A stretch of DNA of 64,000 nucleotides, taken from NCBI GenBank assembly GCA_035544735.1, contig DATKCD010000035.1:31854-95853 (forward strand). Reading direction: 5' to 3'. A program made the translations under genes and the position numbers. The stretch comes from Thermoanaerobaculia bacterium. Lineage in GTDB: Bacteria > Acidobacteriota > Thermoanaerobaculia > Gp7-AA8. Below are positions 15,493 through 44,500 of the stretch, one piece after another (the first letter of the stretch is position 1; each line of letters opens with the position of its first letter). The notes beneath the pieces were generated by a model, which saw only the letters and a program-made list of their open reading frames with translations, was not told the DNA's origin and ran no database searches.

Positions 15493-17438
15493 AGATCCTC
15501 AGGATCGCCCTGGCGATCCTCTTCGTCGCGTTTCTCGCGCTTCTCGGGCTGAGCTTCACCCGAAACAGCCAGCGCCAGCGCGCGGTCAGCGATCCGGTCA
15601 CCTCGCCGATGCGGCAGGGCGAGACGCCTCAGCTCGTCGCGTGGGCCTTCGAGGACGTGCAGACGATCGGCGGCCGCGTCGTCTCGCGGATTCGCGCCCG
15701 GCGCACGATGGGGTTCGGCTCCGGCTGGTACACCCTCGAGGACGTCCACCTCACGATCTACCGCAGCGGCGATCAGACCTGGGAGATCGCCGCACCGGAG
15801 GCACAGTTTCAGATCGACACGCGAGCCGCAGAAGCGAAGGGAGGCGTCCGCATCTCCTCGGGAGATCGCGTCCGGATCGAGACCGACTCGATCGACTTCG
15901 ACGGCACCCGTCTGGCCAACCGGATCCCCGTCCGGTTCCTCGTGGACGAGTGGGAGGGGAAGGCCGGCGCGGTCGATCTCAACGTGGCGACCGAGCATCT
16001 GCGGCTCCACGACGGCGTCGAGGCGACTCGGCGCATCGCGAACGAGCCCCCTCTGATGATGCGCGCCCTCGAAGCCGATTTCGACCGCCTCTCGAACGAG
16101 GCGGTGTTTCGCGGCCAGGCACGGATCGAGCGGCAGGGCGACACGCTCGAGACCGAGGCGATCACGGCACGGGTCGATGCGGAGCGCAGAGTGCTCAGTG
16201 CTCTCGAGGGTTGTTGCGGTGTGGCGTTTCATCTGTCCTCGGGCTCCGAGCTCGCCTCGGGCTCGTCGGTCGGGGAGACCACGGTCCGGGGCGAGCGGTT
16301 CTTCACCGACGTCGGTCCGGAGGGGAAGGTCCGGGCGATCTTCATCGAAGGGGCGGAGAGCCCGGCGCGAGCGGTTCTCGCCGGCCCGCCCCCGCGGACG
16401 CTGACGGCGGGGCAGTTCCGAATCGTTCTCGCCGACCAGGGGGTAGCGGAGATCGAGGCCTCGGGGAGGGCGAAGATCGAAGAATCGGGCCAGACCCCGC
16501 GCTCGGTGAGCGGGTCGAAGATGGTGGCGTACTTCGACGCGGCGCGGCAGCGGCCGACGAGCGCGGTCGTCGAGGGGAATCTCGAGTACCGGGACGCGCG
16601 GAACCGGGCGACGGCGCATCGGGGGACATTCGACTTTCTGGCCGACCGGGTGGTGCTCGATTCGGTCCGAGGGTCGCTTCCGTCGATCGAGTCGGACGGC
16701 CACCGTCTCACGGGGCAGAAGATCGAGCTCTCGCAGCGCGCCGGCCTGCTTCGTGCCGAGGGGTTCGTCAAGGCGCGCTTCATCGACCGCAAGGGCGGGT
16801 CCACGCTCGAACGGAGCGGCGTGTTCCCTTCGAGCCGCAGCCCGGTTTACGTCAATTCCGACTCGGTCGTGCTCCAGCAGCAGGCCGAATCCGCCCACTT
16901 CCGCGGGAACGTACGCGCCTGGCAGGACGAGAACATCCTCCTCTCGAAAGAGCTGAAGATCGAGCAGGGAGGAAAGACACTCGTGGCCGAGGGTGAGGTG
17001 CGCGCGGTGCTTTACAATGCGCGCGAGGAGAGCTCGTCCTCACCGGTCAAGGCGAGCGCGGAGACGCTGACGGCGCGACGGGACGAACGAACGGCGAATC
17101 TGCGCGGCGGAGTTCGAATCGAAGACCAGGGACGAGTGCTCACCTCGGAGAGCGCGACGTTCTTCTTCGATGCGGCGCAGCGCCTCGAGCGCGTCGAGGC
17201 GGCGGGAGGGGTCGAAGTCGCCGAACGGGCGGCCTCCCGCTCGGGCAAGGGAGAACGGCTCGTGTATCACGTTTCGAGACGAATGATTCACCTGGAGGGC
17301 TCGCCGGCGACGGTCACCGATCCGCAGGGGAGCGTCGAGGGAAGCGAGATCGTGTTCGATCTGGCGCGCGATCGCGTGGAGGTGCTCCGCGGTGAGGGGC
17401 AGACCGAGGCGACTTATCGCCCCGAGGGAAGTCGATGA
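15477..17438 (+). CDS. LPS-transport periplasmic bridge protein: N-terminal TM anchor (LptC-like) followed by several OstA/LptA-like beta-jellyroll regions (LptC/LptA-family fusion or expansion)
   Basis: A 654-aa segment begins at [25 protein letters not shown] (one TM helix). Its stop overlaps the lptB start (ATGA), and it lies directly upstream of lptB-rpoN, as lptC-lptA does in canonical clusters. The remainder of ORF 14304..17438 upstream of 15477 is Arg/Gly-rich and overlaps recJ in another frame. Confidence 0.55.
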
Positions 17439-18247
17439 GCGAAGTGAAACGGGCGGTTGCCGTGCCGGATCCGTTCGAGACCGATCCCGATCGGGGTCGC
17501 GGGCCGGATGCCGAGCCCGATCCGATCGTCCTCGCAACGCGCAACCTCGTGAAGATCTACCGCGGACGCACGGTCGTGCGCGACGTCTCGCTCGACATCG
17601 GGCAGGGTGAGATCGTCGGACTTCTCGGCCCCAACGGTGCGGGAAAGACCACGACGTTCTACATGGTCGTCGGGCTCGCCCAGCCCGACGCAGGGAGCGT
17701 GCTGCTGGGAGACGAGGAGATCACCACGCTGCCGATGTACCTTCGCGCGCAGAAAGGAATCAGCTATCTCCCACAGGAGCCGTCGATCTTCCGGAGGCTG
17801 ACCGTGGAGCAGAACCTGCTGGCGGTGTTCGAGACCATGGGGCTGGTGGCGGCCGAGCGGGAGCGGCGGGCGCGGCGACTGCTCGAAGAATTCGGGCTGA
17901 CCCACGTGGCGAACAACCGCGGGTACGCCCTCTCGGGGGGCGAACGCCGGCGGGTCGAGATCGCGCGGTGCCTCGCGATCGACCCGGCATTCATTTTGCT
18001 CGATGAGCCCTTTGCAGGAATCGATCCCATCGCCGTTCTCGACATTCAGCGTCTGGTCTCGCAGCTCCGGGAGCGGGGGATCGGCATCCTCATCACTGAT
18101 CATAACGTGCGGGAAACATTGAAGATCACGGACCGAGCCTATATCATCAAGGAGGGCGAGATCTTCCGTCAGGGGCCGCCCGGCATGCTGTCGACCGACC
18201 CCGAAGTCCGCCGGATCTACCTCGGGGAGGCGTTCAATCTCCACTAG
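17435..18247 (+). CDS. lptB: LPS export ABC transporter ATP-binding protein
   Basis: The Walker A motif [11 protein letters not shown], the signature [13 protein letters not shown] and the Walker B motif [12 protein letters not shown] are present. The gene sits directly upstream of rpoN. Confidence 0.9.
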
Positions 18248-19835: not shown

Positions 19836-20387
19836 ATGAACATCGAGATCTCAGGCCGCAACTACGAAGTGCCCGACCGGATCCGCGAGCTCATCCTCAA
19901 GAGACTCGATAAAGTCACGCGCTTCTTCGAAGACGTCATCGAGATCCGTTGCGTCCTGAACGTCGAGAAACACCGGAACATCTGCGAGATGATCATCATC
20001 GGCAAGAACCAGGACGTGAAGTCGATCCAGGAAGCGGACACGATGGAGGATGCCATCACCACCACGATCGACCACCTCAAGACCCAGGCGACGAAGAATC
20101 GCAAGAAGATCACCGATCATCGGAAGAAGGGGAGCACGCAGCCGGCGGGCCGGACGGCCGGCTCGGGCGAGCGGTCCGATCGCAGCTCCACCGACCGCAA
20201 GACCGCCCCCCGAATCATCCGGCAGACCGCCCTTCCGATCCGCCCCATGTCGGTCGAGCAGGCCGCGATCACCCTCGACGACTCCAGAAACGAGTTCATC
20301 GTCTTCCGCGATCTCGACACCGACAAGGTGACGGTCATCTACCGGCGGCGGGACAACGACTTCGGGCTCATCGCTCCCGAGTTCTGA
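19836..20387 (+). CDS. hpf: Ribosome hibernation promoting factor, long form
   Basis: The N-terminus MNIEISGRNYEVPDRIRELI matches HPF. A C-terminal extension is present, as in long HPF. The RBS GGAGGAG lies 6 nt upstream of the ATG. The gene is in the conserved position after rpoN. Confidence 0.85.
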   Translation: MNIEISGRNYEVPDRIRELILKRLDKVTRFFEDVIEIRCVLNVEKHRNICEMIIIGKNQDVKSIQEADTMEDAITTTIDHLKTQATKNRKKITDHRKKGSTQPAGRTAGSGERSDRSSTDRKTAPRIIRQTALPIRPMSVEQAAITLDDSRNEFIVFRDLDTDKVTVIYRRRDNDFGLIAPEF

Positions 20388-20455
20388 TCGCACGGCGGCC
20401 GCGCGCACGGACCGGCTCCCGGAAACGGCTACAATAGGCCGCTGGTTGCGGCCTC

Positions 20456-22416: not shown

Positions 22417-22469
22417 GTTCACGCCGCCGGCGCCGGCCGGCGGGTTCCGTCGCTTGGCAAGCTCTTCGA

Positions 22470-23837
22470 ATGTCGAAGGAGCTCCTGATGCGCGCCCGGA
22501 TCCTCCAGCTGCTCGAGTCGCTGCGAACGAGCCTATGGTTCGTTCCGACGTTCATGATGAGCGCCGCGACGGCTCTCGCGTTCGGGCTCCCCCGTTTCGA
22601 CCGCGACTACGTCGACACGGACGGGCTGCTCGGTCCCTGGGTTTACGGAGGAGGACCGGAGGGAGCGCGGCAGGTGCTCTCGACCATCGCCGGGTCGATG
22701 ATCACGGTTGCCGGCGTGGTCTTTTCGGTCACGATCGTCGCGCTCTCGCTCGCTTCGCAGCAGTTCGGGCCGCGGATGCTGCGCAATTTCATGACTGACC
22801 GCGGAACGCAGGTCGTCCTCGGCACTTTCACGTCGCTGTTCCTCTACTGCATTCTGGTCGCTCGGACGATCCGGAGCGGAGACGAATCGGCGAGGGTTCC
22901 GCATCTGTCGATCACCGTGGCGGTTCTGCTCGCGGCGATCGCCCTTCTGGTCCTGGTCTATTTCATCCATCACGTGTCGCGGTCGATTCAGGCCGATTCG
23001 ATCATCAGCCGGGTCGGGCGGGAGCTCGATGCCGCGATCGATCAGGCGCACGCCGAAGCGGGGGAATCGGCGCGGGGAGACGAACCGCTGCCGGATCGGG
23101 GTTGGGTTCCAGTCGAGGCGCGAGCGACCGGATACGTTCAGGCGATCGATTCGTGGCAGATCGTCCGGGAGGCGTTCGCGAGAGGGGCGGTGGTGCGGTT
23201 CCGCCGCGCCCCGGGAGAGTTCGTGTTCGACCGCGCGTCGCTCGCCGACGCCACGCCGGTCGAAGCGGTCGGGGATGGGGAGTGGATCCGGGCCGCCGTC
23301 GCGGTCGGACCGATCCGCACGCCGACGCAGGACCTCGAGTTCTCGGTCTCCCGGCTGGTCGAGATGGCGCTGCGCGCCCTCTCCCCCTCGCTCAACGACC
23401 CGTTCACCGCCGATGCCTGCATCGACCGCCTCGCCTCCGGCTTCGCGCGGGCCGCCGAGGGCGACCTTCCGACGGGAAGGTTCACCGATGGGGAAGGGAC
23501 GCTTCGCCTCGTCGTCCCGCTGACCAGTCTCGAGCGGATCGCCGACGCCTCGTTTCATCCGATCCGGCAGGCCTCGGCCCGCCTTCCGGCGGTCGCCCTG
23601 CACCTGCTGTCCAGACTCGCCCAGGTCATCCGCGCGACCTCGAGCGAGCCGGGACGACAGCTCCTTCTCCGACACGCGGTGCTGGTCCGCCGCAGCCTCG
23701 AGAGCTCCGGCCTCGACCCGGCCGATCTCGAGGCGATCGACGGGCGATTCCGCGACGTCCTCGAGGCGATGGCCGCCGAGCCCGAATCGCCGCCCGGCGA
23801 ACCGCTGTCGGAACGCATCATGAACAGCGGGAGTTGA
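22470..23837 (+). CDS. DUF2254 domain membrane protein
   Basis: Four N-terminal TM helices are followed by a large soluble domain. The layout and the N-terminal motif LWFVP..M are typical of the DUF2254 family. Confidence 0.6.
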   Translation: MSKELLMRARILQLLESLRTSLWFVPTFMMSAATALAFGLPRFDRDYVDTDGLLGPWVYGGGPEGARQVLSTIAGSMITVAGVVFSVTIVALSLASQQFGPRMLRNFMTDRGTQVVLGTFTSLFLYCILVARTIRSGDESARVPHLSITVAVLLAAIALLVLVYFIHHVSRSIQADSIISRVGRELDAAIDQAHAEAGESARGDEPLPDRGWVPVEARATGYVQAIDSWQIVREAFARGAVVRFRRAPGEFVFDRASLADATPVEAVGDGEWIRAAVAVGPIRTPTQDLEFSVSRLVEMALRALSPSLNDPFTADACIDRLASGFARAAEGDLPTGRFTDGEGTLRLVVPLTSLERIADASFHPIRQASARLPAVALHLLSRLAQVIRATSSEPGRQLLLRHAVLVRRSLESSGLDPADLEAIDGRFRDVLEAMAAEPESPPGEPLSERIMNSGS

Positions 23838-23868
23838 GGCTAATTTTGGTAGCAGCCGACCCGTTCCT

Positions 23869-23896
23869 CCCGACTCGCCAACGGTCCGCGAGTCGG
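23869..23896 (+). terminator. Possible factor-independent terminator hairpin after the DUF2254 gene
   Basis: The stem is CCCGACTCGC / GCGAGTCGG with a 9-nt loop, about 30 nt after the stop. There is no U-tract, which is common in high-GC genomes. Confidence 0.25.
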
Positions 23897-24040
23897 CCTC
23901 GGTGGCGGCGCCGGGGAGGGGAGGGGGGAGGGGTGGGGCGCGAATGGCCTAACCCATTCGGATGTTAGAATTTGCGGTTTGTCGGCCGGGTCACCCGGCG
24001 CGGAGCGCCGCGCGCGTTCCGCCGAGGAGGTTCACCCATC

Positions 24041-24484
24041 TTGATCGGCGGTCTGATCGTCACTCATGGAAGGCTCGCGTACGAGTTGCTGCATGCCGCG
24101 GAGACCATCGAGGGAGAGCTGGCTGGAATCGAGGCCGTTCCTCTGGAGTGGACCGAGACGGTGGAGCAGGCGCGGGAGAAGATCCGTCAGGCTCTCGAGC
24201 GGATCGGTCGCGAATGCGGAGTCATCATCTTCACGGACATGTTCGGTGGCACGCCGAGCAACATCTCGCTCTCGTTCCTGGAGAAGGATCGGGTGGAGAT
24301 CGTGACGGGCGTGAACCTTCCGATGATCATGAAGTTCGTATCGCTCAAGGATGGGGCGGGGGACCTTTCCGAGGCGGCGCATCTGATCCGGGAGAAGGGG
24401 TCGAAGTCGATCCGCGTGGCCTCGGACCTGCTGGCGATGGAGGATCGGAACGACGGGGAGGAACGTGATCAGCAGGGAGATTGA
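24041..24484 (+). CDS. PTS EIIA component, mannose/fructose family
   Basis: The sequence LIVTHGRLAYELL...IIFTDMFGGTP...VTGVNLPM has the EIIA-Man fold signature. A TTG start with the RBS GAGGAGG 10 nt upstream is proposed. The upstream part of ORF 23972.. has no RBS. Confidence 0.7.
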   Translation: MIGGLIVTHGRLAYELLHAAETIEGELAGIEAVPLEWTETVEQAREKIRQALERIGRECGVIIFTDMFGGTPSNISLSFLEKDRVEIVTGVNLPMIMKFVSLKDGAGDLSEAAHLIREKGSKSIRVASDLLAMEDRNDGEERDQQGD

Positions 24485-24734
24485 GATCCGGAACAAGCTC
24501 GGGCTCCACGCCCGGGCGGCTGCGAAGCTGGTTCACGCCGCGGCGCGGTTCAAGAGCGACATCAAGGTTCGGAAAGGGAGCGACCAGGTCGACGCGAAGA
24601 GCATTCTCGGGATCCTGCTGCTGGCGGCGGGGCAGGGGACGAAGATCACGGTGACGGCTTCGGGGGAAGACGAGACCGAGGCGGTGGAGTCGATCGAGAG
24701 TCTGATCGACTCGAAATTCGACGAATCGGAGTAG
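24465..24734 (+). CDS. ptsH: Phosphocarrier protein HPr
   Basis: The active-site region GLHARAAAKLV with His15 is present, as is the regulatory Ser46 region KGSDQVDAKSILGILLL. A GTG start is proposed. Confidence 0.85.
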   Translation: MISREIEIRNKLGLHARAAAKLVHAAARFKSDIKVRKGSDQVDAKSILGILLLAAGQGTKITVTASGEDETEAVESIESLIDSKFDESE

Positions 24735-26540
24735 ATGGTGCTGGTTCCGAAACAGCGTAAGTCGTCCCGCGACGTCCGGAGCGAGATCCGGACGTACAAG
24801 GGGATCGGCGTGTCGCCGGGGATCGCGATCGGCCATGCGCTGATCGTGGAGAAGCTCACCTCGGTGTTCCGGGTTCCGATCAAGGAGGACGACGTGCCTC
24901 GGGAAGTCGAGCGATTCGTGGAGGCGCTCGACCGGACCCGAGGCGATCTGTACGAGCTCAAGGACAAGGTGGCGCGCTCGATCGGGGACGAGTATGCGTC
25001 GATCTTCGAGGCGCACGCGATGATCGCCGGCGACCCCGCCTTCGCCGACAAGGTGATCCAGAAGATCGAGCAGGAGCGGGTCAACGCCGAATGGGCCCTG
25101 TTCGAAGTCCAGGAAGAGCTCGAGGCGCGGTTCGAGAGCTTCGAGGACGAGTACCTCCGAGACCGGGGAGAGGACGTCAAGGACGTCGGGATGAGCCTGC
25201 TGAAGAACCTGCACGGTCTCTCGCACCACGATCTGTCCGAGATCGACCACGACGTGGTGATGCTCGCCGACGACCTCACGCCCTCGGACGCGATTCACTT
25301 CAACCGCAAGCCGATCGTCGGCTTCGCCACCGAGAGCGGCGGCCGGACTTCGCACACGTCCATCATCGCGAAGTCGCTGTTCCTTCCCGCCGTGATCGGC
25401 GTGCCCCGCCTGACCGAGGTCATCGACAACGAGGAGCTCGTGATCGTCGACGGCTACGAAGGCACGCTGGTGGTCAATCCGACGCCCGCGCTGATCGAGG
25501 AATACCGGAGCAAGGTGACCCGCCACGAGGAGTACGAGAAGCGTCTGCTCGAGAATCGGGACATCCCGGCGGTCACGCGCGACGGGCGGAAGGTCGCGCT
25601 GCAGGCGAACATCGAGCTGCTCGAAGAGCTGGACGACGCGAGAAAATACGGCGCGGAGGGGATCGGGCTCTACCGCTCCGAGTTTCTCTACATTTCGAAG
25701 AGCCCCGCTCTGCCGACCGAAGAGGAGCACTTCGAGATGTACCGCAGGATCGCCGAAAAGGTCAGTCCCGAGTGGGCCGTGATCCGCACGTTCGACCTGG
25801 GCGGCAAGAAGCTGGCCCGCGAGGTGATGGGCTCGCGCGAGGACAACCCCGTGCTCGGTCTGCGGGCGCTGCGGCTCTGCATGAGGCACCGCGACATGTT
25901 CCGGACTCAGCTCCGCGCACTGCTCCGCGCCTCGGCCCACGGCAGGATCAAGATCATGTTCCCCCTCGTGTCGGGGATCCAGGAGCTCCGGCAGGCCAAA
26001 TCATTCCTGCGCGAGATCCGCAACGAGCTGGATGCCGAGGGGATCGAATACAACCGCGAGCTCGAGGTCGGAATCATGATCGAGGTCCCCTCGGCGGCGA
26101 TGACGGCCGACATCCTGGCGACCGAGGCCGACTTCTTCGCCATCGGCACGAACGACCTCATCCAGTACGCCCTCGCGATCGACCGCTCGAACGAGAACGT
26201 GAACTACCTCTACGAGCCGCTCCATCCCGCGATCCTGCGCCTGATCAAGTTCGTCATCGACTCGGCACGCGATGCCGGAATCCCCGTCTCGATGTGCGGC
26301 GAGATGGCCGCCGATCCGCTCTACGCCGTCGTCCTGGTCGGGCTGGGGCTCGAGATCCTCTCGATGAGCCCTTCCTCCATCCCGATGATGAAGGAAGTCA
26401 TCCGATCGGTCCGCCACCGCGACTGCCGGCGCATCGCCGCCCAGGCCCTCCAGAAGAGGACCGCGCAGGAGATCGAGGAGTTCGTGATCGAGAGCGTCGC
26501 CATGCGTCTCCCCAGCGGATTCGCCACGCGCACCTCCTGA
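24735..26540 (+). CDS. ptsI: Phosphoenolpyruvate-protein phosphotransferase (PTS Enzyme I)
   Basis: The phospho-His region GGRTSHTSIIA, the PEP-binding region and the motif RTFDLGGKK are present. Confidence 0.9.
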   Translation: MVLVPKQRKSSRDVRSEIRTYKGIGVSPGIAIGHALIVEKLTSVFRVPIKEDDVPREVERFVEALDRTRGDLYELKDKVARSIGDEYASIFEAHAMIAGDPAFADKVIQKIEQERVNAEWALFEVQEELEARFESFEDEYLRDRGEDVKDVGMSLLKNLHGLSHHDLSEIDHDVVMLADDLTPSDAIHFNRKPIVGFATESGGRTSHTSIIAKSLFLPAVIGVPRLTEVIDNEELVIVDGYEGTLVVNPTPALIEEYRSKVTRHEEYEKRLLENRDIPAVTRDGRKVALQANIELLEELDDARKYGAEGIGLYRSEFLYISKSPALPTEEEHFEMYRRIAEKVSPEWAVIRTFDLGGKKLAREVMGSREDNPVLGLRALRLCMRHRDMFRTQLRALLRASAHGRIKIMFPLVSGIQELRQAKSFLREIRNELDAEGIEYNRELEVGIMIEVPSAAMTADILATEADFFAIGTNDLIQYALAIDRSNENVNYLYEPLHPAILRLIKFVIDSARDAGIPVSMCGEMAADPLYAVVLVGLGLEILSMSPSSIPMMKEVIRSVRHRDCRRIAAQALQKRTAQEIEEFVIESVAMRLPSGFATRTS

Positions 26541-26635
26541 AGGCGCAGGGGGCGCTCGGGCGCCGAAATGACCTCGTGGCCGCTGGTGTTGTCCACCGCA
26601 GGGGCCGAACCGGCTGGTATCATCAGGAGGACCGC

Positions 26636-27265
26636 ATGATGGGACGACTGCTCGCGATCGCGCTGCTGATCCTCTGGGCGGCGACACCGATCGGCGCCGA
26701 CGAGGCGGCCGCGAAATCGAAATCGGATAGCCGGAAGGGCGCTTCGTCCGGGGACGCGAAGAGCGCGTCCGCCGGCGCGAAGGATTCCGCCGCCGGGAAG
26801 GGCGAAGAGGACTCGCCCCTGGTCCAGGCGGCTCGCCGGGGGCGGCTCGCACGCGAGAAGGGCGACAAGTCGCGCGTGGTCATCACCGACGAGACCGTGA
26901 AGCAATCCACCGGACGGGTGACCGTTTTCGAGGGCCAGCCCGGGGAGATCCGACATCAGGCCGAGCCCGCCGACCAGGTCTTCACCCGCATGGCCGCGGA
27001 AAAGAAGGCGAAGGAGCAGGCCGCCGCGGACGCGAAGGCGAAGATCGAGCGGCTCGAGGAGGAGATCGCGCGGCTCGATCGCGACCTCCGCCGCACTCAG
27101 GACGAGTACTTCGACGAAGGGGACCTGAACTATCGCGAGGAAGTCCTTCAGGACCGCTGGAAGGACGCCCGCGACCGACTCGCCGAGAAGCGCGAAGAGC
27201 TCGAGCGCGTACGGCGGGACTACCAGCGGCTGTCGCGCGAGACATCGAACGTCTACAAACCATGA
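26636..27265 (+). CDS. Secreted low-complexity/coiled-coil protein of unknown function
   Basis: The RBS CAGGAGG lies upstream. A signal peptide MMGRLLAIALLILWAATPIGA is followed by a K/S/A/D-rich region and a charged coiled-coil. This is the C-terminal 210 aa of ORF 25091..27265, whose upstream part overlaps ptsI out of frame. Confidence 0.5.
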   Translation: MMGRLLAIALLILWAATPIGADEAAAKSKSDSRKGASSGDAKSASAGAKDSAAGKGEEDSPLVQAARRGRLAREKGDKSRVVITDETVKQSTGRVTVFEGQPGEIRHQAEPADQVFTRMAAEKKAKEQAAADAKAKIERLEEEIARLDRDLRRTQDEYFDEGDLNYREEVLQDRWKDARDRLAEKREELERVRRDYQRLSRETSNVYKP

Positions 27266-28572
27266 CCGCTTCGACCAGCGAGAAAGCGTTCTTCATCGAG
27301 ACCTGGGGCTGCCAGATGAACGACCTCGATTCGCAGCGCCTCGCGGGACAGCTCCGGCTCCGCGGCTGGCGACGCGTCGAGGATGCCTCCCGGGCGAGCC
27401 TGATTCTGCTCAATACCTGCAGCATCCGGGACAAGTCCGAGAACAAGGTCTTCAGCCGGCTCGGCGAGCTCCGCGGGGTCGGGCGGTCCGGCGTGAGAGT
27501 CGGCGTCGCCGGCTGCGTCGCGCAGCAGGAAGGAGAAGCCATCCTCGCCCGCGCCCCCTGGGTCGACTTCGTCATGGGTCCGGGTAACGTCGGCGCCCTC
27601 GATCAGCTCCTCGACGGGACGCGGAAGGTCGCGGTCGACTTTCCCGCCGACAGGCGATACGACTATCTCTCGATCGACCGCCCCTCCCGCGTGCGCGCTC
27701 AGGTCACGATCATCGAAGGGTGCAACAAGAACTGTACCTTCTGCATCGTTCCGACCACGCGCGGCCGCGAGGTCTCGCGCCCGATGCGGGAGATCGTCGG
27801 CGAGATCCGCTGGGAGCTGCGGCAGGGGAGGGCCGAGGTCGAGCTGCTGGGACAGACCGTCAATGCCTACCGCTGCCCCGAGAGCGGAACCGACTTCGCC
27901 GGCCTGCTCGAGACGATCGCCCGCCTTCCCGGGCTGCTCCGCCTCCGGTTCGTCACCTCCCACCCCGCCGAGGTGACCGACCGCCTCATCGAGGTGATGC
28001 GGGACTACCCGGTGATCTGCCGTTACCTCCATCTTCCCGTCCAGTCGGGCTCCTCGCGCGTGCTGCGCCGGATGAAGCGCCTCTACACCCGGGAGCAGTA
28101 TCTCGACGTGATCGAGCGCATCCGGACGGCCATCCCCGGGATGAACTTCTCGACCGACATCATCGTCGGATTCCCGGGAGAGACCGAGGAGGATTTCGAG
28201 CAGACGCTGAGCCTGGTCGAGAAGGTCGGATACGGATCACTCTTCGGCTTCCTCTACTCGCCGCGGCCGGGAACGCCGGCGCCGCGGCTCGGGCCCCCCG
28301 TCGAGCACGGCGTCGCCGCGGCGCGACTCGGGCGGCTGTTCGCTCTGCAGGAGCGATTCGAGCGGAGGACGCTCCGGAGCTGGGTCGGCCGGATCGTCCC
28401 GGTGCTGTACGAGGGGTCGAGCGCGAAGAGTCCGGAGGTCCTGGCCGGCAAAACAGAGCACAACTGGACCGTGAACTTCACGAGCGCCCGTCCCGCTTCG
28501 ATCGGGGAGCTCGTTCCCGTGCGGATCGATCACGCGCTTCATCACTCGTTGCGAGGGGAGGCCGTCGCGTGA
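27262..28572 (+). CDS. miaB: tRNA-2-methylthio-N6-dimethylallyladenosine synthase
   Basis: The MTTase N-domain WGCQMN, the radical-SAM motif CNKNCTFCIVP and a TRAM domain are present. Confidence 0.9.
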   Translation: MTASTSEKAFFIETWGCQMNDLDSQRLAGQLRLRGWRRVEDASRASLILLNTCSIRDKSENKVFSRLGELRGVGRSGVRVGVAGCVAQQEGEAILARAPWVDFVMGPGNVGALDQLLDGTRKVAVDFPADRRYDYLSIDRPSRVRAQVTIIEGCNKNCTFCIVPTTRGREVSRPMREIVGEIRWELRQGRAEVELLGQTVNAYRCPESGTDFAGLLETIARLPGLLRLRFVTSHPAEVTDRLIEVMRDYPVICRYLHLPVQSGSSRVLRRMKRLYTREQYLDVIERIRTAIPGMNFSTDIIVGFPGETEEDFEQTLSLVEKVGYGSLFGFLYSPRPGTPAPRLGPPVEHGVAAARLGRLFALQERFERRTLRSWVGRIVPVLYEGSSAKSPEVLAGKTEHNWTVNFTSARPASIGELVPVRIDHALHHSLRGEAVA

Positions 28573-29056: not shown

Positions 29057-29285
29057 GCGTCTTGGGCGTCTAGGGCGTCCTGGGCGTCTGGAGCGTCTGG
29101 AGCGTCTGGAGCGTCTGGAGCGTCTGGAGCGTCTGGAGCGTCTTGGGCGTCTGGGCTGTGCCAGCCGCGGTTTCCGCCGGATGAGAGCAAACGTCGAACC
29201 GCCGAAGAAGACTTCAGCGAAAGATGACGCCCCAGGCACACCGGACGCTCCAGACCCTCCAGACGCTCAAGACGCTCAAGACGCT
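29057..29285. repeat. Inverted tandem 9-bp repeat array, locus A: 11 units of GCGTCTGGA-like (29057-29155), an 85-bp spacer, then 5 units of the complement CCAGACGCT-like (29241-29285)
   Basis: Counted directly. The forward-unit variants TTGG/TAGG/CTGG/TGGA/TGGG have matching complementary variants in the reverse array. The locus fills the whole interval between the BFN stop (29054) and the parA start (29305). ORFs translating it (RRSRRS or ASGASG periodic peptides) are rejected. Confidence 0.9.
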
Positions 29286-30945: not shown

Positions 30946-31174
30946 GCGTCTCGAGCGTCTAGGGCGTCTGGGGCGTCTGGTGCGTCTGGAGCGTCTGGAG
31001 CGTCTAGGGCGTCTGGAGCGTCTGGAGCGTCTTGGGCGTCTGGAGCGTCTTGGGCGTCTTGGGCGTCCTGAGCGTCGTGGCGGTATGGGGGGGGTGTCCC
31101 CTCGGAGAGTGCCGTGACGGCCCGGACGCCCAAGACGCTCCAGACGCCCAAGACGCCCAAGACGCCCAAGACGC
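30946..31174. repeat. Inverted tandem 9-bp repeat array, locus B: 15 forward units (30946-31080), a 40-bp spacer containing the mini-palindrome GGGGGGGGTGTCCCCTC, then 6 reverse-complement units (31121-31174)
   Basis: Counted directly. The array starts on the first base after the parB stop and ends about 125 bp before lptF-lptG. Confidence 0.9.
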
Positions 31175-31301: not shown

Positions 31302-33632
31302 ATGCGCATCCTGACCCGTTACGTCCTCCGCGAGCTTCTCCCGCCGACCCTGCTCGGGTTCGGCTTCTACACCTTCATCATCCTGATGAAGAACCTGTTC
31401 GACTTCGCGGAGATGATCATCAAACGGTCGCTGCCGTTCTCGATCGTCCTCGAGCTGCTCGCCCTGGCGCTCCCGCACATCGTCGTGCTGACGATCCCGA
31501 TGTCGCTGCTGGTGGGGATCCTCATCGCCATCGGCCGGCTCTCGGCCGACTCCGAGATCATCGCCATGCAGTCGGCGGGTCAGTCGCCGGCGGCGATCTA
31601 CCGGCCGGTCTTCTACTTCTCCGTCGCGGTGTTCCTCGTCAATCTCGTCCTGATGATCTGGGTTCTTCCGTGGGGCAACGCGGCGCTGCAGAAGCGCCGG
31701 GTCGATCTGCTGACCTCGGCCGTGGAGCGCGAGATCAAGCCTCGGGTTTTCTTCGACGAGTACGAGGACCGGGTGATCTACATCGACGACGTCGAGACGG
31801 CCACGGGACTGTGGAAAGGGATCTTCATCGCCGACACGAGCGATCCCGATCAGCAGCGGATCATCGTGGCGGATGCGGGACGTCTCTCGGTGACGAGCGG
31901 GACGCGGCAGGTCTGGCTGGACCTCGAGGGACCCGAGACGCACGTGCTGTCACCCGACAAACCGGAGCGATACGATCTGAATCGGAACGAGGCGCAGCAG
32001 ATCCTGCTGGACGATCCTTCGCTCGGCGAGCTCGAGACGCGGTCGCTCGCGAAGTCGCTCAAGGAGATGAGCCTGACCGAGCTGCTGGAGCGGCTCCGCC
32101 GCGCCCAGGCCGAGGGTGACGCGCTCGACGAGCGGTTCATCCGGGTGGAGATCCACACCCGGTTCGCGATCCCGTTCGCCTGCATCGCATTCGGCGTGCT
32201 CGGGCTGCCCCTCGGGATCACGAACCGCCGCGGAGGCAGGAGCTCGGGCTTCTCGCTGAGCATCGCGATCATCCTTCTCTACTACATCCTGCTGAACAAC
32301 GGCGAGGATCTGGCGCGCTCGGGCCGGCTCCCTCCAGGGATCTCGATGTGGCTGGCGAACGCGGTTCTGCTGGGGGCCGGACTCTGGCTGCTCGGGAAGA
32401 CGGGGACGGACCGGAGGGCGGGCGGGCTGCGGCGGCTGATCGCTCCCCTGCGCCGGCTGGCGCGATGGAAACGCCCCGCGGACCGGAAAAAGGAGCTCGC
32501 GCGGGACGAGGGATCTCTGCTGCAGCGTCTGGACATTCCGTTCCCGAACACGATCGACCGCTACGTCCTGATCGAGTTCGCCAAGATTCTGGCGCTCGTC
32601 GTGCTCTCGACGGCGGTGTTGTTCGTGGTGGTCGATTACACGGAGATCGCCGGGCACGTGGGCGAGAACGACATCCCCTTCGACGTGGTGGCCTCGTACT
32701 ACCGATATCTGATGCTGCAGATCCTGAGCTGGGTCCTTCCGATCTCGGTTCTCGTCGGGACGCTCATCACGTTCGGGATCCTGTCGAAGAACAACGAGGT
32801 GACGGCGATCAAGGCCAATGGGATCTCGCTGTACCGGATCGCGCTGCCGGTCGTTGCCGTCGCGGCCACGATCAGCGTGGTGTCGTACTTCCTCCACGAC
32901 TTCGTGCTGCCGTACTCGAACCAGCGTGTGGCGGAGCTGCGCGCGCACATTCGCGGAAGGGAGACGGCGAGCGCGTACTCGCCGGAGCAGCAGCGGCAGT
33001 GGGTGTTCGGGAAGGGACGCTACATGTTCAACTTCCTCGGCTACGATCGCTCCTCGCGGACCCTGTCGGAAATCCAGGTCTTCGAGTTCCATCCGAGCGA
33101 GTTTCGCCTCACGCGGCGAGTCTGGGCGGACGAGGCGCGCTTCGACGGCACCGGCTGGGTGTTCCTGAACGGCTGGATGCGCTCGTTCGGAGACGACGGT
33201 GGCTCGTCCTACACGCCGCTCTCGCGTCCGGTCCGGCTGCACTATCCGGAGCGGCCCTCCTGGTTCGAGGTCGAAGCGAAGGCGCCCGACCAGATGACCT
33301 GGGCCGAGCTGCGCCGCTACATCGCCAATCTCAGACGTCTCGGCTACTCCGCCGACGAGCTGACCGTCAGGCTCTGGGAAAAGACGTCATGGCCCTTCAT
33401 CAGCGTGGTCATGGCGCTGATCGCCCTCCCCTTCTCGTTCAGGATGGGAAAGAAGGGGGCGCTCTACGGCATCGGAATCGCGCTCTTTCTCGCGTTCGTC
33501 TACTGGAGCCTGTTCGGCGTGTTCAGCAAGCTGGGCGAGGTCGGCAACCTTCCCGGCATCCTGGCCGCCTGGAGCGCGAACGTCCTGTTCATGATCGCCG
33601 CGCTCTACATGTTCCTCCACGTCGAGACGTGA
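31302..33632 (+). CDS. lptFG: Fused LptF-LptG LPS export permease (two YjgP/YjgQ-family modules in one 776-aa ORF)
   Basis: The N-terminal half has the LptF layout and the second half the LptG layout. The N-terminal half begins MRILTRYVLRELL and has TM helices, a periplasmic domain and C-terminal TM helices. The second half begins about aa 410 at IDRYVLIEF and repeats the same architecture. There is no in-frame stop between the halves. The linker is basic (RRLIAPLRRLARWKRPADRKKELARDEG). Confidence 0.7.
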   Translation: MRILTRYVLRELLPPTLLGFGFYTFIILMKNLFDFAEMIIKRSLPFSIVLELLALALPHIVVLTIPMSLLVGILIAIGRLSADSEIIAMQSAGQSPAAIYRPVFYFSVAVFLVNLVLMIWVLPWGNAALQKRRVDLLTSAVEREIKPRVFFDEYEDRVIYIDDVETATGLWKGIFIADTSDPDQQRIIVADAGRLSVTSGTRQVWLDLEGPETHVLSPDKPERYDLNRNEAQQILLDDPSLGELETRSLAKSLKEMSLTELLERLRRAQAEGDALDERFIRVEIHTRFAIPFACIAFGVLGLPLGITNRRGGRSSGFSLSIAIILLYYILLNNGEDLARSGRLPPGISMWLANAVLLGAGLWLLGKTGTDRRAGGLRRLIAPLRRLARWKRPADRKKELARDEGSLLQRLDIPFPNTIDRYVLIEFAKILALVVLSTAVLFVVVDYTEIAGHVGENDIPFDVVASYYRYLMLQILSWVLPISVLVGTLITFGILSKNNEVTAIKANGISLYRIALPVVAVAATISVVSYFLHDFVLPYSNQRVAELRAHIRGRETASAYSPEQQRQWVFGKGRYMFNFLGYDRSSRTLSEIQVFEFHPSEFRLTRRVWADEARFDGTGWVFLNGWMRSFGDDGGSSYTPLSRPVRLHYPERPSWFEVEAKAPDQMTWAELRRYIANLRRLGYSADELTVRLWEKTSWPFISVVMALIALPFSFRMGKKGALYGIGIALFLAFVYWSLFGVFSKLGEVGNLPGILAAWSANVLFMIAALYMFLHVET

Positions 33633-33633
33633 G

Positions 33634-33848
33634 GCGTCTGGAGCGTCTGGAGCGTCTGGAGCGTCTGGAGCGTCTTGAGCGTCTGGAGCGTCTGGAGCGT
33701 CCGGAGCGTCTCGGCGGTTCGAAGACCGCGAGAGAATCACTCGAGACGCCCGAGACGCCCGAGACGCCCGAGACGCCCGAGACGCTCAAGACGCCCGAGA
33801 CGCTCCAGACGCCCGAGACGCTCCAGACGCTCCAGACGCTCCAGGCGC
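33634..33848. repeat. Inverted tandem 9-bp repeat array, locus C: 9 forward units (33634-33714), a 26-bp spacer, then 12 reverse units, mostly CCGAGACGC/TCCAGACGC (33741-33848)
   Basis: Counted directly. The locus lies between the convergent lptFG stop (33632) and the pckA stop (33854). Confidence 0.9.
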
Positions 33849-33853
33849 CCCGG

Positions 33854-35413
33854 TCAGATCGCTTCGACGATCCGCCGGTCGAGCCCTTCCCATTTGCGGA
33901 GGTACTCCTTCCGCTCGCGGAGGTAGCGCTCGACCAGCTTCTGGTACTCGTCCATCCGCCCCTGGCGCTCGTAGAGCCGTCGCGGCTGGAGATAGTCGGC
34001 GTCGTCGATTCCCGGCACGCGGCTGGCGACTCGATAGCCGAAGTCGGGGTCCGTTTCCCACTCGATGGTCCCTTCCGCGATGGCCTTGACGATCGCCGAG
34101 GAGTGCTGAATCCGGACCTTCTTGGCGCGGTCGTCGTCGTCGCCGCCGCCGATCCGCCCGGTGTTCATCAGGTAGACCTCCATCGGCGAGCTCTCGAACA
34201 GCTCGAGGAAGCGGTTGCCCTGGAGAGCGTGCAGCAGGGGAAAGAAGGGGTTCGTGCCGGGAACGCGGAGGGACTTGCCGGCCTCGGCCGCGCCGCCGGC
34301 GCTCGTTCCTTTCGTCTCACCGAGCATGAAGAACGCGGCCGCCTGAGCTCCCTCGAGCTTCGCGACGGCCGGAATGATGTTGTCGTTGCGGTTGAGGATC
34401 AGGAGGAAGTCGGCCTTGTCGATCCTGCGTGCGTCGTAGCTCCCGGCCACGTCCTGCATCCGGATGACCGCGCGGCCGTTCTTCGTGTAGGACGTATCGA
34501 AATAGTCGATCTTCCCGTCTTCGTCCAGCGAGACGTTCTCGAGATAAGCATGGCGCGAAGCGCAGGCGCGGTAGATCGTCGGCTCGTCCTTCTCGTTGAG
34601 CCCGAAGGTCTTGGCGAAGCAGCCGTTCTCGGTGGCGACGACCTTCCCTCCCGGCATCAGCGCGGCGAAATCGTCCTGCACGGGCGAGGAGTCGTTCTGC
34701 TTGGTGAAGGTCGTGGTCGTCTTGCCGGTCCCCGAGAGGCCGACAATCAGCCCGACCCGGTGTTTGCCGTTCACCGGGATCACCTTGCATCCGGCGTGGA
34801 GCGCGAGTCCGCCGCGCTCGTAGACGATCTTGTTCCACATCCGGAGGCCGCCTTTTTTCGACTCCCCGAAGTAATCGGAGTTGAACACGCGCGTGATCTC
34901 GTTCTCGAGATCGACGGCGATCAGGCGGTCGTCGGGGTATCCGGGCATCGGCAGGTTCGGCGTGTAGACGACCTGGAGCTTCGGCTCGAAGCTTTCGAGC
35001 TCCTCGGGCGTCGCCGGGTAGTAGAGGTGCTGCTGCATCGCCGCGATGTTCGCGTTCCGCTTCTCCATGACGAGTCGAGCCGGGACCCGGTGCTGCGGGT
35101 CGTTCCCGATGAACCCCTCGACGACGATCATCTCCTGGCCGCGGATGTAGTCGTCCTGGAGCTTCGAGATGCGGTCGTACTCGGCGCGGGTGATGGTCTG
35201 GTCGGAGTGGCGGGAAGGATCGTCCGTCGCAATGAACGTCGAGAGCTTGGAGCGGGAGACCACGCGCGTGGCGACGTTGTAGTTGTCGAACTCGGTCTTC
35301 CGCGCATTGGGCATCTGCGCGGTCAGCTCGCGCAGCTCCCGGGGAGAAGGATTCCATAGGACCGATTTCGGCTGGACCGGAAGCGCTTTCGATTCCCGTG
35401 CGATTTCCGTCAT
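33854..35413 (-). CDS. pckA: Phosphoenolpyruvate carboxykinase (ATP)
   Basis: The ATP-type P-loop GLSGTGKTTT, PEPCK motifs and RIGGG are present. The start MTEIARE is chosen within the longer ORF, whose 5' extension is Arg-rich. Confidence 0.85.
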   Translation of the reverse strand: MTEIARESKALPVQPKSVLWNPSPRELRELTAQMPNARKTEFDNYNVATRVVSRSKLSTFIATDDPSRHSDQTITRAEYDRISKLQDDYIRGQEMIVVEGFIGNDPQHRVPARLVMEKRNANIAAMQQHLYYPATPEELESFEPKLQVVYTPNLPMPGYPDDRLIAVDLENEITRVFNSDYFGESKKGGLRMWNKIVYERGGLALHAGCKVIPVNGKHRVGLIVGLSGTGKTTTTFTKQNDSSPVQDDFAALMPGGKVVATENGCFAKTFGLNEKDEPTIYRACASRHAYLENVSLDEDGKIDYFDTSYTKNGRAVIRMQDVAGSYDARRIDKADFLLILNRNDNIIPAVAKLEGAQAAAFFMLGETKGTSAGGAAEAGKSLRVPGTNPFFPLLHALQGNRFLELFESSPMEVYLMNTGRIGGGDDDDRAKKVRIQHSSAIVKAIAEGTIEWETDPDFGYRVASRVPGIDDADYLQPRRLYERQGRMDEYQKLVERYLRERKEYLRKWEGLDRRIVEAI

Positions 35414-35742
35414 GATCTCCCCTTTGCCGTTGCGGACGCGTGGTTTGCGCCGCGCCCTCCGGTTCCGCTCGCGCAGCAGCCTCGCGCGGAGGGCCATGGC
35501 GGCCCTGCAGACGCCGGGTTTCGCCAGTTTATCGATTTTCGGCTCGCGCCGTCCACCCAGGAGAATGCGAAGAGCGTACCTCCGGGCGGGCGCGGGTGCC
35601 GGGCCTCTCCCGCCGGCGGAAGAGCGGCTTCACGGATGAAATCCCCCGCCCGAGTCCGCCGCTTCGCCGGGCCGCCCTCGAGGATCGGATGCCCTCCGAT
35701 GCCCGGCGCGCCCTCCCCTCCCCTGCTACAATTCACGCCGCC

Positions 35743-36741
35743 ATGGGCAAGCCCGAGCGCCGGCAGGGGCCGGCGGAGATCCACCCATCGATCCTCGAAG
35801 CGCGGCGCGTTCTCGAAGTCGAAGCGAATGCAATCCTCGGTCTGATCAACCACCTCGACGAGCAGTTCATCGCGGTCGTCGATCTGATCCGTGCGTCCTC
35901 GGGGCGGGTGGTCACCATGGGGATGGGGAAGTCGGGCATCATCTGCAAGAAGATCAGCGCCACGCTCGCCTCGACGGGAACGCCGTCGTTCTTCATGCAC
36001 CCCGGCGAGGCGCTCCACGGCGATCTCGGAATGCTCGTCCGGGGCGACCTGGTGCTGGCGATCTCCAATTCGGGCGAGACCGAGGAGATTCTCCGTCTGA
36101 TGCCGGCGATCAAGCGGCTCGGCGTCTCGCTCGTCTCGATCACCGGAAATCCCGCGTCGAGCCTGGCGCACCATGCCGACCACCATCTCTCCGCTGCCAT
36201 CTCGAAGGAGGCGTGCCCCCTCGGACTCGCTCCCACCGCATCGACCACCGCGACGCTCGCGCTCGGAGACGCGCTCGCGATGGCGCTGCTGACCGCACGC
36301 GGTTTCCGTGAGGAGGACTTCGCGGTCCTGCATCCCGGAGGAAAGCTCGGCAAGCGCTTCCTCAAGGTCCGCGACCTGATGCACTCGGGAGATGACGCGC
36401 CGCGCGTGGTGCTCTCCACTCCCATGCAGGACGTGATCTACGAGATGTCGCGCAAGGGGTTCGGCATCACCGCCGTGGTCTCCGAGGACGGGCGGCTCGA
36501 AGGGGTGATCTCCGATGGAGACCTCCGCCGCCTGCTTCAGCGCGACGAACAGGCGCTCCGGCGCAACGCTCAGGAATCGATGAAACGCGATCCCTTCACG
36601 ATCGATGGAGATCAGCTCGCCTCGGCCGCCCTTCAGGTGATGGAGGAGAAGAAGATCACCTCGCTCTTCATCGTCGACGATGCCGGGCGCGCCGAAGGAA
36701 TCCTCCACATCCACGATCTCTGGGGGCTGGAGCTGTTTTGA
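35743..36741 (+). CDS. kdsD: KpsF/GutQ-family arabinose-5-phosphate isomerase (SIS + tandem CBS domains)
   Basis: The SIS motifs GMGKSG and ASTGTPSFFMHPGEALHGDLGM are present, with a CBS pair at the C-terminus. The alternative start is the ATG at 35689. The ORF's upstream 100 aa are junk-like. Confidence 0.85.
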   Translation: MGKPERRQGPAEIHPSILEARRVLEVEANAILGLINHLDEQFIAVVDLIRASSGRVVTMGMGKSGIICKKISATLASTGTPSFFMHPGEALHGDLGMLVRGDLVLAISNSGETEEILRLMPAIKRLGVSLVSITGNPASSLAHHADHHLSAAISKEACPLGLAPTASTTATLALGDALAMALLTARGFREEDFAVLHPGGKLGKRFLKVRDLMHSGDDAPRVVLSTPMQDVIYEMSRKGFGITAVVSEDGRLEGVISDGDLRRLLQRDEQALRRNAQESMKRDPFTIDGDQLASAALQVMEEKKITSLFIVDDAGRAEGILHIHDLWGLELF

Positions 36742-41508: not shown

Positions 41509-44500
41509 ATGAGACGAATGCCCGCTCGCCCGCTCGGACTCTGTCTTCTGTTCGCGCTGCTCGCCGCATCGGCGAGCGCCCAATTCGTCGTGACCAATAC
41601 TCTCGACATCGGAGCCGGGTCGCTGCGCCAGGCGATCCTCGACAGCAACGCCTGCCTCGCGACGTGCGACATCGAATTCAATATCCTGGCCGGTTCGTGC
41701 CCGTCATCCGAGTGCCGGATCGAGGTCGCGTCCGCCCTTCCTTCGATCAGCGGGATCGGAAGCCCCACGGTGGACGGTACTACGCAGCAGATCTTCAACG
41801 GCTCGTTCGTAGTCGTCGACGGAAACGGGATCGCGGCCGACGGACTCACGCTGGCTGCGGCGAGCGTGACGGTCGACGGGCTGGCGGTGGTTGCCTTCGG
41901 AGGAGCGGGAATCCGGCTGACCTCTCCGGCGGGAGGAGCCGAGATCCTCAGCTCGAGAATCGGGACGTCCTTTGCGGGCTCCGTCGAAGGAAACGGCGGG
42001 GACGGGATCGCGGCCGACAGCGGGCTGCTGGGGGCTCTGATCTCGGGGAACACGATCGCGCACAACGGCGGATCGGGCGTCCGGATCGGGACCGACGACG
42101 GCGACCTGACTCCGAGCGGGGTCGAGCTCATCAGCAACTCGATCTTCGACAACGCTCTTCTCGGCATCGATCTCGGCACCCAGGGAGTGCTGGCGAACGA
42201 CGCGCTCGATCTCGACGCCGGCCCCAACGGTCTTCAGAACGCTCCGGTGCTCACTTCGGCGAGCTCGACTCCGAGCGGGATTCAGGTCGTCGGCCAGCTC
42301 GAGTCCGAAACCTCCCAGGACTATCGAATCGAGATCTACGGCAGCGCCGTCGCCGACCCGAGCGGTTTCGGCGAGGGAGAGATCCTGCTGAACTCGTTCA
42401 ACGCGGCCACGGATGCGTCCGGTGTGGCTCCCATCGATCAGGTTTTCTTCGCCTCCGGCTCCTCGTTCGACTCGATCACGGCCACGGCGACGAAAATCGA
42501 CCTCTCCGGGGGAGTCAACGAGACCTCCGAGTTCTCGAACGCGGTGCCCCTGCCGCATTCGTACATCGTGACGAACACCAACGACAGCGGCCTCGGGTCG
42601 CTTCGCGCCGCCATCGATGCCGCGAACTCGTTCGCCTGTGCTTATCCCTGCACGATTCTGTTCAACATCCCCGGGACCGGGCCGGTTTTCACCATCCAGC
42701 CGCTGACGCCCCTTCCGGCGATCGTCGTCGAGCAGGTGTTCATCGAGGGCTCGAGCCAGACCTCGTTCGGCGGCGATACGAACCCCTTCGGTCCCGAGAT
42801 CGACCTCGACGGCTCTCTCCTCTCGTCCGGACACGGCCTGCTGATCGATGCGGCGAGCACGTTCGTGGGGGGGGTCGGCATCGAAGGGCTCACGATCCGC
42901 AACTTCCCCGGCGACGGCATCCGCGTCGACGCGCCCGGCTCCTTCTCGAGCTCCGGCAACGCGTTTTTCAACTGTTACATCGGAACCGATCCGACCGGCA
43001 CTTCGGCCTCGCCGAACGGTGGCTACGGAATCGGCCTGTTCGGAGCCGCTCTGTCCAACTTCGTCGGCGATCCGTTCAACGACATCGGAAACCTGATCAG
43101 CGGGAACGCGGCGTTCGGCGTCTATGCCGGGATCTCTTCGGGCAGCCACATCGTGGTCTCGAATCTCATCGGCACCGATCGCACGGCGACGAGTCCGATT
43201 CCGAACGGGATGGGCGGCGTCTACGTCGACAGCGGCTTCAACCAGTTCGGATTCTTCAGCTCCCGCTTCATCGTCAATTCCGCGGGGGCGAGCGCCCTTT
43301 CCGCACCGGCCGATCCGTCCCGGCGGCTCGCGCGGCTCGCGGAGCGGGATCCGGCCTCGGATGAGCGGATCGCGTCGGCTCCGTGGGTCGTACGGCAACA
43401 GGCGCTCGCGGCGTCTCGGTCGTCCGCCCCGGCCGTCGCTCCTTCGTCGGTCGCTGCGCAGGGCGCGCTCCCCGCTCCGAGTGGAAACATCATCGCCTTC
43501 AACGACGGTCCGGGAATCGTACTCGACAACGGGGCGAGCGAGAACCTCGTCGCTCTGAACTGGATTCATTCGAACGACGGGGACGGAGTCCTGCTGACCG
43601 GCACCGCCGGCAACGGCAACTGGATCTCGGTGAACTCGATCCACGACAATGCCGGACTCGGAATCGACATCGACGCGGGCACGCAGAACGCCGACGGAGT
43701 CACCCAGAACGACGGCGCCGAGACGTTCGGCGAGCCGAACGACCTGGTCGACTATCCGACGATCGTGAGCGCGGTGTTCGACGGGACGAACACCGACATC
43801 ACATACACGTTCGCCTCCACCTCCGGGGCGTACCAGACGTATTACTTCGATTTCCACAAGGGTCCGACGCCCGACCCGAGCGGCTTCGGCGAAGGGGAGA
43901 CGTGGTTCGACTTTGACGCTCAGACGTATGGAATCACACCGCCGGACGGCACGACCCCGCACCTGCTCCGCTTCCCGATGGATCTGCGCGGAAACTGGAT
44001 CACCGCGACGACCGGAAGCGAGGTTTTCACGAGTACTTCGTTCTCGGTCTCCGAGTTCAGCGCAGCCGTCGCGGTTCAGGCTCTCGACCTCGGGATTGCC
44101 AAGAGCGGCCCCGCCACCGTCCTGGCCGGCCAGCCCTTCAGCTACACCCTCACCGTCACCAACTTCGGCCCCGACACTTCAGAACCCGTCGACGTGACCG
44201 ATACCCTCCCCGCCGGCACCGCCTTCGTCTCCGCTTCCGCGTCGTCCAGCACCCCGACGATCTGGTCGTGCAGCGAGACCTCGCCCGGGGTGGTCCTCTG
44301 CACGACGGGCGTCATGCTCGAGCTCGACGTCACGACGATCACGATCAACGTCGTCGCGCCGGGAAGCCCCGGCACGATCACGAACACCGCCGACGTGGCG
44401 ACGGGCGGAACCGACATCGACCCCGCGAACGACTTCTCGGCCGTCTCGACGACGGTCCTCCCCCCCGAGGCCGATCTCAAGATCGAAAAGAGCGGGCCGG

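Follow-up and report, generated by a model that had tools for sequence, protein, structure and literature searches.

Can LptF and LptG, the two membrane subunits of the lipopolysaccharide (LPS) extractor LptB2FG, be made as one polypeptide? This question is raised by a single open reading frame (ORF) of 776 codons, here called lptFG, in a stretch of 64,000 nucleotides from a Thermoanaerobaculia bacterium of the phylum Acidobacteriota (lineage Gp7-AA8; GenBank assembly GCA_035544735.1, contig DATKCD010000035.1, positions 31,854 to 95,853 of the forward strand). We refer to this whole stretch as the window and give all coordinates within it. A sequence-only reading had described the ORF as a natural fusion of the two permease paralogues. 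Our analysis led us to the same conclusion: lptFG is very probably a genuine, vertically inherited gene fusion that encodes both transmembrane domains of an LptB2FG complex, LptF followed by LptG, in one protein (LptFG).

The ORF listing with its translation shows lptFG as uninterrupted on the plus strand, and the start, internal and end sequences quoted in the earlier reading match it: the protein begins with MRILTRYVLRELL, ends with FMIAALYMFLHVET and carries IDRYVLIEF at residues 418–426. PF03739 (LptF_LptG) was the sole Pfam family detected and was found in two stretches (E-value 1.2e-165, 551.3 bits versus a cut-off of 27.9). The NCBIfam models agree with this result, TIGR04407 (LptF) matching residues 3–364 of the whole protein and TIGR04408 (LptG) residues 417–773. 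That is, two YjgP/YjgQ-type domains are present in the predicted order. The LptF-like module itself stood up to analysis, but its proposed end at about residue 395 did not, as it ends at around residues 364–370 and is followed by a variable linker (residues 365–404).

We also scored the halves apart, each against its own NCBIfam equivalog model and that of its paralogue. The N-terminal half (residues 1–371) reached 253.3 bits with the LptF model (cut-off 230) versus 143.6 with the LptG model, and the C-terminal half (residues 406–776) reached 241.1 bits with the LptG model (cut-off 240, barely exceeded) versus 130.8 with the LptF model. The paralogue's model thus lay about 110 bits below the own-family model for either half. 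Sequence comparison with the PDB gave LptF chains as best matches of the N-terminal half and LptG chains as best matches of the C-terminal half. Third-position GC content (GC3), read in one frame, was 0.91 in the LptF half, 0.85 in the linker and 0.91 in the LptG half.

The earlier reading had proposed a survey of relatives, and these do carry the fusion. An identical protein (100%, P0001) is known at NCBI from a Thermoanaerobaculia metagenome-assembled genome (MAG), and the best 120 database matches, with identities down to 55%, were without exception 762–836 residues long at 99–100% query coverage. A scan that took a single genome for every GTDB species yielded 185 confirmed loci, the best 80 of which were examined; all were labelled Thermoanaerobaculia or Acidobacteriota, and in 80 of 80 both halves lay in the same frame without a stop codon (tblastn and translation). 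When 1.84 billion cluster representatives were searched exhaustively with HMMER, a length of at least 740 residues was found for 137 of the best 150 clusters (50% identity), and single alignments over essentially the whole query were common down to 28% identity. All 56 distant fused members matched both the LptF and the LptG model, and the placement of LptF before LptG was retained in the distant member P0136. Judged from these loci, the fusion is the standard architecture in Thermoanaerobaculia and not special to the source organism.

A profile built from 126 diverse fused proteins drew mostly Thermoanaerobaculia, while Terriglobia were reached by a second profile that excluded this class. 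By the source names of the sampled clusters, the fused architecture occurs in Thermoanaerobaculia, Candidatus Aminicenantes, Vicinamibacteria and Candidatus Polarisedimenticolia, and further in Terriglobia, Terriglobales, Acidobacteriia, Candidatus Acidoferrales and Candidatus Angelobacter. On the basis of these names, the fusion is a broad trait of Acidobacteriota, found in Thermoanaerobaculia plus at least four other classes. As a side observation, the MAG S6_bin.32.orig holds two full-length lptFG genes on separate contigs (L003 and L004, 72% and 69% identical to the query), which suggests that this bin mixes two related genomes.

An AlphaFold2 model of LptFG, built with 76 fused homologues, had a mean predicted local distance difference test score (pLDDT) of 80.7 and a predicted template modelling score of 0.71. 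In the LptF half, helices were modelled at residues 2–41, 46–82, 85–91 (short), 96–139, 274–307, 312–340 and 345–371, with a strand block at 157–237; in the LptG half they comprise residues 415–455, 460–496, 499–505, 510–551 and then 685 to 774, with strands at 566–646. The helix and strand order of the LptF/G family therefore occurs twice in the model, and pLDDT falls below 50 in the linker only. As modelled, each half is composed of six transmembrane (TM) helices, and a periplasmic beta-jellyroll separates TM3 from TM4. When the model was compared with the PDB using Foldseek, each of the best 30 matches was an LptF or LptG chain from an LptB2FG(C) complex, with template modelling scores of 0.61–0.88 (normalised to the target chain); the best of them was 6mjp_G (E-value 3.5e-14, target score 0.78).

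Both halves contain a conserved glutamate at the coupling helix. E85 in the LptF half is invariant in the 76 fused homologues and at least 90% conserved in the 126 diverse ones, and E499 in the LptG half is likewise invariant in the 76. Judged by their alignment with E. coli LptF and LptG, E85 and E499 are the glutamates predicted to dock LptB. All sequence and fold features of an LptB2FG extractor for which we tested were found in LptFG, the departure being that F and G are not separate polypeptides.

What joins the two halves? The linker of LptFG contains 15 lysine and arginine versus six aspartate and glutamate residues and is disordered in the model (pLDDT below 50 over residues 369–414). 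Scored alone, it gave no family match among the NCBIfam models. In the 76 close homologues the segment equivalent to residues 365–408 spans 39–53 residues, contains 18% arginine and is weakly conserved. Across the 126 diverse fused proteins, the segment equivalent to residues 365–416 varies from 34 to 112 residues (median 56) and carries a net charge of +2 to +17, which is positive in every case (126/126); a membrane-like hydrophobic stretch was found within it in one of the 126. In solved structures the TM2-3 and TM4-5 loops are cytoplasmic (PMC6744409), and therefore each six-helix domain has its N- and C-terminus on that side as well. Taken together with a basic, non-hydrophobic tether, a link from LptF TM6 to LptG TM1 therefore fits the topology. 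We infer a linker of about 40–55 residues that connects the last helix of LptF (TM6) with the first of LptG (TM1) on the cytoplasmic face. Both earlier proposals on this point, a basic and probably cytoplasmic linker and a topologically feasible head-to-tail fusion, are in line with these results.

The linker leads into a far more conserved junction motif, S-L-L-x-R-L-D-I-x-F-P-N-x-[IL]-D-R-Y, located directly ahead of LptG TM1. Among the 76 homologues D411, P415, D419, R420 and Y421 are invariant, R409, I412, F414 and N416 reach a conservation of at least 90%, and FP..LDRY can still be recognised in the consensus of the 126 diverse proteins. Some fused homologues are longer (P0258, P0259, P0270, P0183 and P0143, 900–983 residues), and P0152 and the truncated P0226 have hydrophobic, membrane-like stretches in the inter-domain segment; the linker may have gained insertions or extra helices in some lineages.

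Since the fused gene was found in a metagenome-derived sequence (P0001 is labelled 'MAG TPA') and indels are possible in high-GC metagenome assemblies, a stop codon or frameshift might have been overlooked in the linker, so that adjacent lptF and lptG genes appear as one. A few half-length database entries would seem to fit such an artefact, namely P0263 (405 residues, LptF-like) and P0247 (429 residues, LptG-like). However, these two overlap on the same linker start, RRNRDKSLLL, and look like broken fused genes, not natural split genes; another half-length entry, P0130, begins inside the linker without a start codon and is a fragment. The single stop-free frame in all 80 independent species-level genomes, hundreds of independent full-length metagenome proteins and an in-frame GC3 of 0.85 in the linker leave the artefact with a negligible chance, and with all comparative loci in frame we rejected it as effectively excluded. 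It is improbable, too, that the fused gene yields two subunits in the cell, by proteolysis of the linker or by internal initiation of the LptG half. Proteases would have access to the linker, given its disorder (pLDDT below 50) and its variable sequence and length, and the string AAGGAG is present at 32490–32495. But no in-frame ATG, GTG or TTG exists between residues 387 and 421, which led us to reject internal initiation; the linker sequence is unconserved, so that it offers no conserved cleavage site or internal ribosome-binding site; and the conserved junction motif before LptG TM1 argues for selection on the joined form.

A different origin would be a duplication inside Acidobacteriota by which a single homodimeric LptF/G-like permease gave rise to both halves; the halves would then not be orthologues of LptF and LptG. 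LptF and LptG are indeed paralogues and each model also matches the other half, but the preference of each half for its own model by about 110 bits, above the equivalog cut-off, the nearest PDB chains (LptF for the N-terminal, LptG for the C-terminal half) and the LptF-then-LptG placement in the distant P0136 make this origin highly improbable, and on these grounds we rejected it. Finally, LptFG might export a lipid other than LPS. Such a role has been suggested for Lpt-like systems of bacteria that lack LPS, and Lpt homologues of Thermotoga (PMC10160955) and Borrelia (PMC10353723; bioRxiv 10.1101/2022.12.21.521298) have been proposed to move other lipids or lipoproteins. We consider this quite improbable for LptFG, as both halves pass LPS-specific equivalog models, genes for LptB, an LptC/LptA-like protein and KdsD lie within the window, and Acidobacteria are classed as LPS diderms (PMC8871954).

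Several points weigh against a genuine LptF-LptG fusion that acts as a single LPS-exporting chain across Acidobacteriota. The LptG half, scored alone, exceeds its curated cut-off by 1 bit only. Persistence as one chain and the transport of LPS are both deduced from gene-level evidence, and the packing of the two halves relative to each other comes from a predicted model. Taxonomic breadth derives from source names on sampled clusters. Among these, two fused clusters carry unconfirmed labels, one 'candidate division B38' and the other, P0517 with 227 sequences, Candidatus Dormibacteraeota, outside Acidobacteriota. For P0517 the explanation is either mis-binning of a contig or a fusion that occurs beyond the phylum.

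With the vertically inherited fusion as the preferred reading, LptFG likely works as a single chain with two copies of LptB, as far as can be judged from the genes. The chain would fold into the usual pseudo-symmetric F/G pair and bind two copies of the LptB ATPase encoded about 13 kb upstream. LPS would then be extracted by the chain and reach the LptC/LptA-like protein by way of the LptF jellyroll. What the fusion would alter is assembly, with F and G obligatorily paired at a ratio of 1:1 and inserted in a single event; the transport chemistry would stay as it is. In solved complexes the LptC helix occupies the gate between TM1 of LptG and TM5 of LptF (TM1G/TM5F; PMC6744409), and the tether therefore connects elements that adjoin this gate. 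More tentatively, and with considerable doubt, Acidobacteriota might build their inner-membrane Lpt engine from three gene products (LptB, LptF-G and LptC-A), not five, with the tether and the R-L-D-I-x-F-P-N motif lying under the TM1G/TM5F lateral gate and modulating gate opening or the coupling to LptC and LptB. Any regulatory consequence of a tether near the gate is speculation.

The features of LptFG, the partner genes and the repeat arrays are compiled in the following table.

Table. Position of lptFG, its parts and associated elements in the window
Feature	Position	Strand	Description and evidence
lptFG	31302..33632	+	Single 776-codon ORF, ATG to TGA, encodes the fused LptF-LptG permease
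LptF module, residues 1–364	31302..32393	+	TM1-3, periplasmic beta-jellyroll, TM4-6; TIGR04407, PDB matches, AlphaFold
E85 codon, LptF-half coupling-helix glutamate	31554..31556	+	Aligns with E. coli LptF E84 (6mhu_F)
LptF-half periplasmic beta-jellyroll, residues 157–237	31770..32012	+	AlphaFold strands; Foldseek matches LptF chains
Variable Arg-rich inter-domain linker, residues 365–404	32394..32513	+	Cytoplasmic by inference; alignments, pLDDT
Junction motif S-L-L-Q-R-L-D-I-P-F-P-N-T-I-D-R-Y, residues 405–421	32514..32564	+	Enters LptG TM1; homologue alignments
LptG module, residues 417–776	32550..33629	+	TM1-3, beta-jellyroll, TM4-6; TIGR04408, PDB matches, Foldseek
E499 codon, LptG-half coupling-helix glutamate	32796..32798	+	Aligns with E. 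coli LptG E88 (6mhu_G)
LptG-half periplasmic beta-jellyroll, residues 566–646	32997..33239	+	AlphaFold strands
LptC/LptA-like partner gene, 653 residues	15477..17438	+	Membrane-anchored; TIGR04409, TIGR03002, Pfam
lptB, ATPase	17435..18247	+	TIGR04406, 359.3 bits versus cut-off 240
Third intergenic inverted 9-bp array pair	29057–29285	.	After the gene upstream of parA; repeat search
Upstream intergenic inverted 9-bp tandem arrays	30946..31174	.	(GCGTCTGGA)n, then reverse complement; repeat search
Downstream intergenic inverted 9-bp arrays	33634..33850	.	Between convergent lptFG and pckA; repeat search, RNA fold

The protein encoded directly upstream of lptB, described earlier as LptC/LptA-like, was recovered as such at a length of 653 residues, with a membrane anchor and with LptC and LptA matches above curated cut-offs. 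TIGR04409 (LptC) matched residues 14–143 with 49 bits (cut-off 38) and TIGR03002 (LptA) matched two stretches, the better one at 518–642 with 77.4 bits (cut-off 71.7). In Pfam, LptC was assigned to residues 20–183 and LptD_N/LptA (OstA-like) to about 458–506 and 527–631, with about 270 residues between the LptC and OstA-like matches free of any assignment. A single-sequence AlphaFold prediction gave an overall pLDDT of 35.6, with 80–92 for the N-terminal membrane helix. The ORF had no sequence match in the PDB even at E-values up to 1, and no relative was found with it as query in the metagenome scan. From its domain matches it is possibly a natural LptC-LptA fusion. Its stop codon overlaps the start of lptB (translational coupling), and rpoN comes after lptB.

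The two Lpt loci, about 13 kb apart, are separated by rpoN, hprK and PTS (phosphotransferase system) genes, miaB and parAB. Downstream of lptFG lie the convergent pckA, then kdsD (KpsF/GutQ family; synthesis of 3-deoxy-D-manno-octulosonic acid), DUF6982 and lolA. This context was read from an ORF and GC3 map of the window and from relatives, and the presence of lptB, the LptC/LptA-like gene, kdsD and lolA speaks for the preferred reading of lptFG. The order parA-parB-lptFG-pckA-kdsD-DUF6982-lolA is kept across the Thermoanaerobaculia loci; in a Terriglobia-type relative the fused gene has other neighbours. Scanning the surroundings of lptFG for promoters and terminators yielded nothing that exceeded shuffled background.

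Within the interval from lptB to parAB (18352–28572), rpoN, hprK, ptsI and miaB were noted, and one relative additionally has hpf, rapZ, EIIA and HPr. The interval resembles the E. coli neighbourhood lptCAB-rpoN-hpf-ptsN-rapZ-npr, a resemblance suggesting that Lpt genes and the nitrogen-PTS region have long been linked. The listed GTG start of the kdsD ORF (35440–36741) overlaps the 5' end of the divergent pckA (33854–35497), the family match begins at about residue 120 and the product has 333 residues in relatives; the true start is probably located about 100 codons downstream of the listed GTG. Further along, a 2016-residue ORF (41509–47559) with DUF11, CARDB and right-handed beta-helix repeats probably encodes a giant surface protein.

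The inverted 9-bp repeat arrays that had been noticed around lptFG are present on both sides of the gene, and a third pair occurs further upstream. All three pairs consist of (GCGTCTGGA)n, a spacer of 30–70 bp and the reverse-complement array, and the two that follow parB and lptFG begin 1–2 nt past the stop codon. Two-unit matches were observed 32 times versus 0.03 expected. For the array 3' of lptFG, RNA folding gives a stem of about 100 bp (–177.6 kcal/mol, z = –15.3), and this array may be a bidirectional terminator or an element similar to repetitive extragenic palindromes (REP-like). Comparable arrays with other units were seen elsewhere: a 7-bp array, GAATGCA x5.4 and then TTCTGCA x5.4, at 8601–8638 and 8685–8722 of the window, and (TAGGACGAA)x4.7 directly followed by the inverse (CCGTCCTAT)x5 at 12031–12117 of the related locus L051. 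Among the TRF rows of the 80 related loci, arrays of period 7 were the most frequent. It seems that inverted short-period arrays occur throughout the lineage, with a fast-changing unit sequence.

How does the fused gene relate to the existing record? Automated annotation already captures it: JGI uses the double name 'LptF/LptG', and NCBI lists 'LptF/LptG family permease', often with one half only ('LptF' or 'LptG'). Descriptions of an LptF-LptG fusion were not found in the searchable literature, which does not cover subscription-only papers, and within that literature the fusion appears to be undescribed. A phylogenomic survey of outer-membrane genes reported lptF and lptG as "apparently lacking" in Acidobacteria and chose orthologues partly by hit length (PMC8871954); a double-length fused gene may explain this call, and the published absence would be corrected. 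The fusion further suggests that linking LptF TM6 to LptG TM1 by a cytoplasmic tether is compatible with the F/G heterodimer. A natural single-chain LptFG would help structural studies and the introduction of asymmetric mutations into an antibiotic target that is already validated, and the fused architecture may serve as a taxonomic marker of Acidobacteriota. The known transport mechanism is unchanged by these findings. We regard the fusion as useful to specialists rather than surprising.

Compared with the LptB2FG(C) complexes of E. coli and other Proteobacteria (6MHU, 6MI7, 6S8H, 6MJP, 5X5Y, 8FRL), LptFG shares the family fold and one coupling-helix glutamate per half, lptB and LptC/LptA homologues are present, and one F, one G and two B would be expected per complex. 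Sequence identity to the solved LptF and LptG proteins is about 15–22% (Foldseek). In contrast to the proteobacterial systems, F and G are here one polypeptide with a basic linker and not two gene products, and lptFG follows parAB in this lineage, unlike in E. coli, where the genes sit beside pepA/holC. A natural fusion of Lpt modules in a non-proteobacterial diderm has one precedent in our comparison, the Thermotoga maritima protein G4FGC1, a putative fused Lpt-like ABC (ATP-binding cassette) permease which is reported to combine LptF/G-like, LptA-like and LptD-like domains and for which a role in moving ordinary membrane lipids is proposed (PMC10160955). LptFG differs from it in that only two PF03739 domains are present and the LptA-like domains are found on a separate ORF; the Thermotoga-type arrangement is thus not what we see. 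Other ABC families commonly have their two membrane domains fused. In the ferric hydroxamate importer of E. coli, for example, FhuB comprises two transmembrane domains in one chain that works with two copies of a separate ATPase. LptFG resembles FhuB in that homologous membrane domains, elsewhere separate subunits, are fused head to tail, but it has the fold of an LPS extractor versus that of a type II importer, the direction of transport differs and the two proteins have no sequence relationship.

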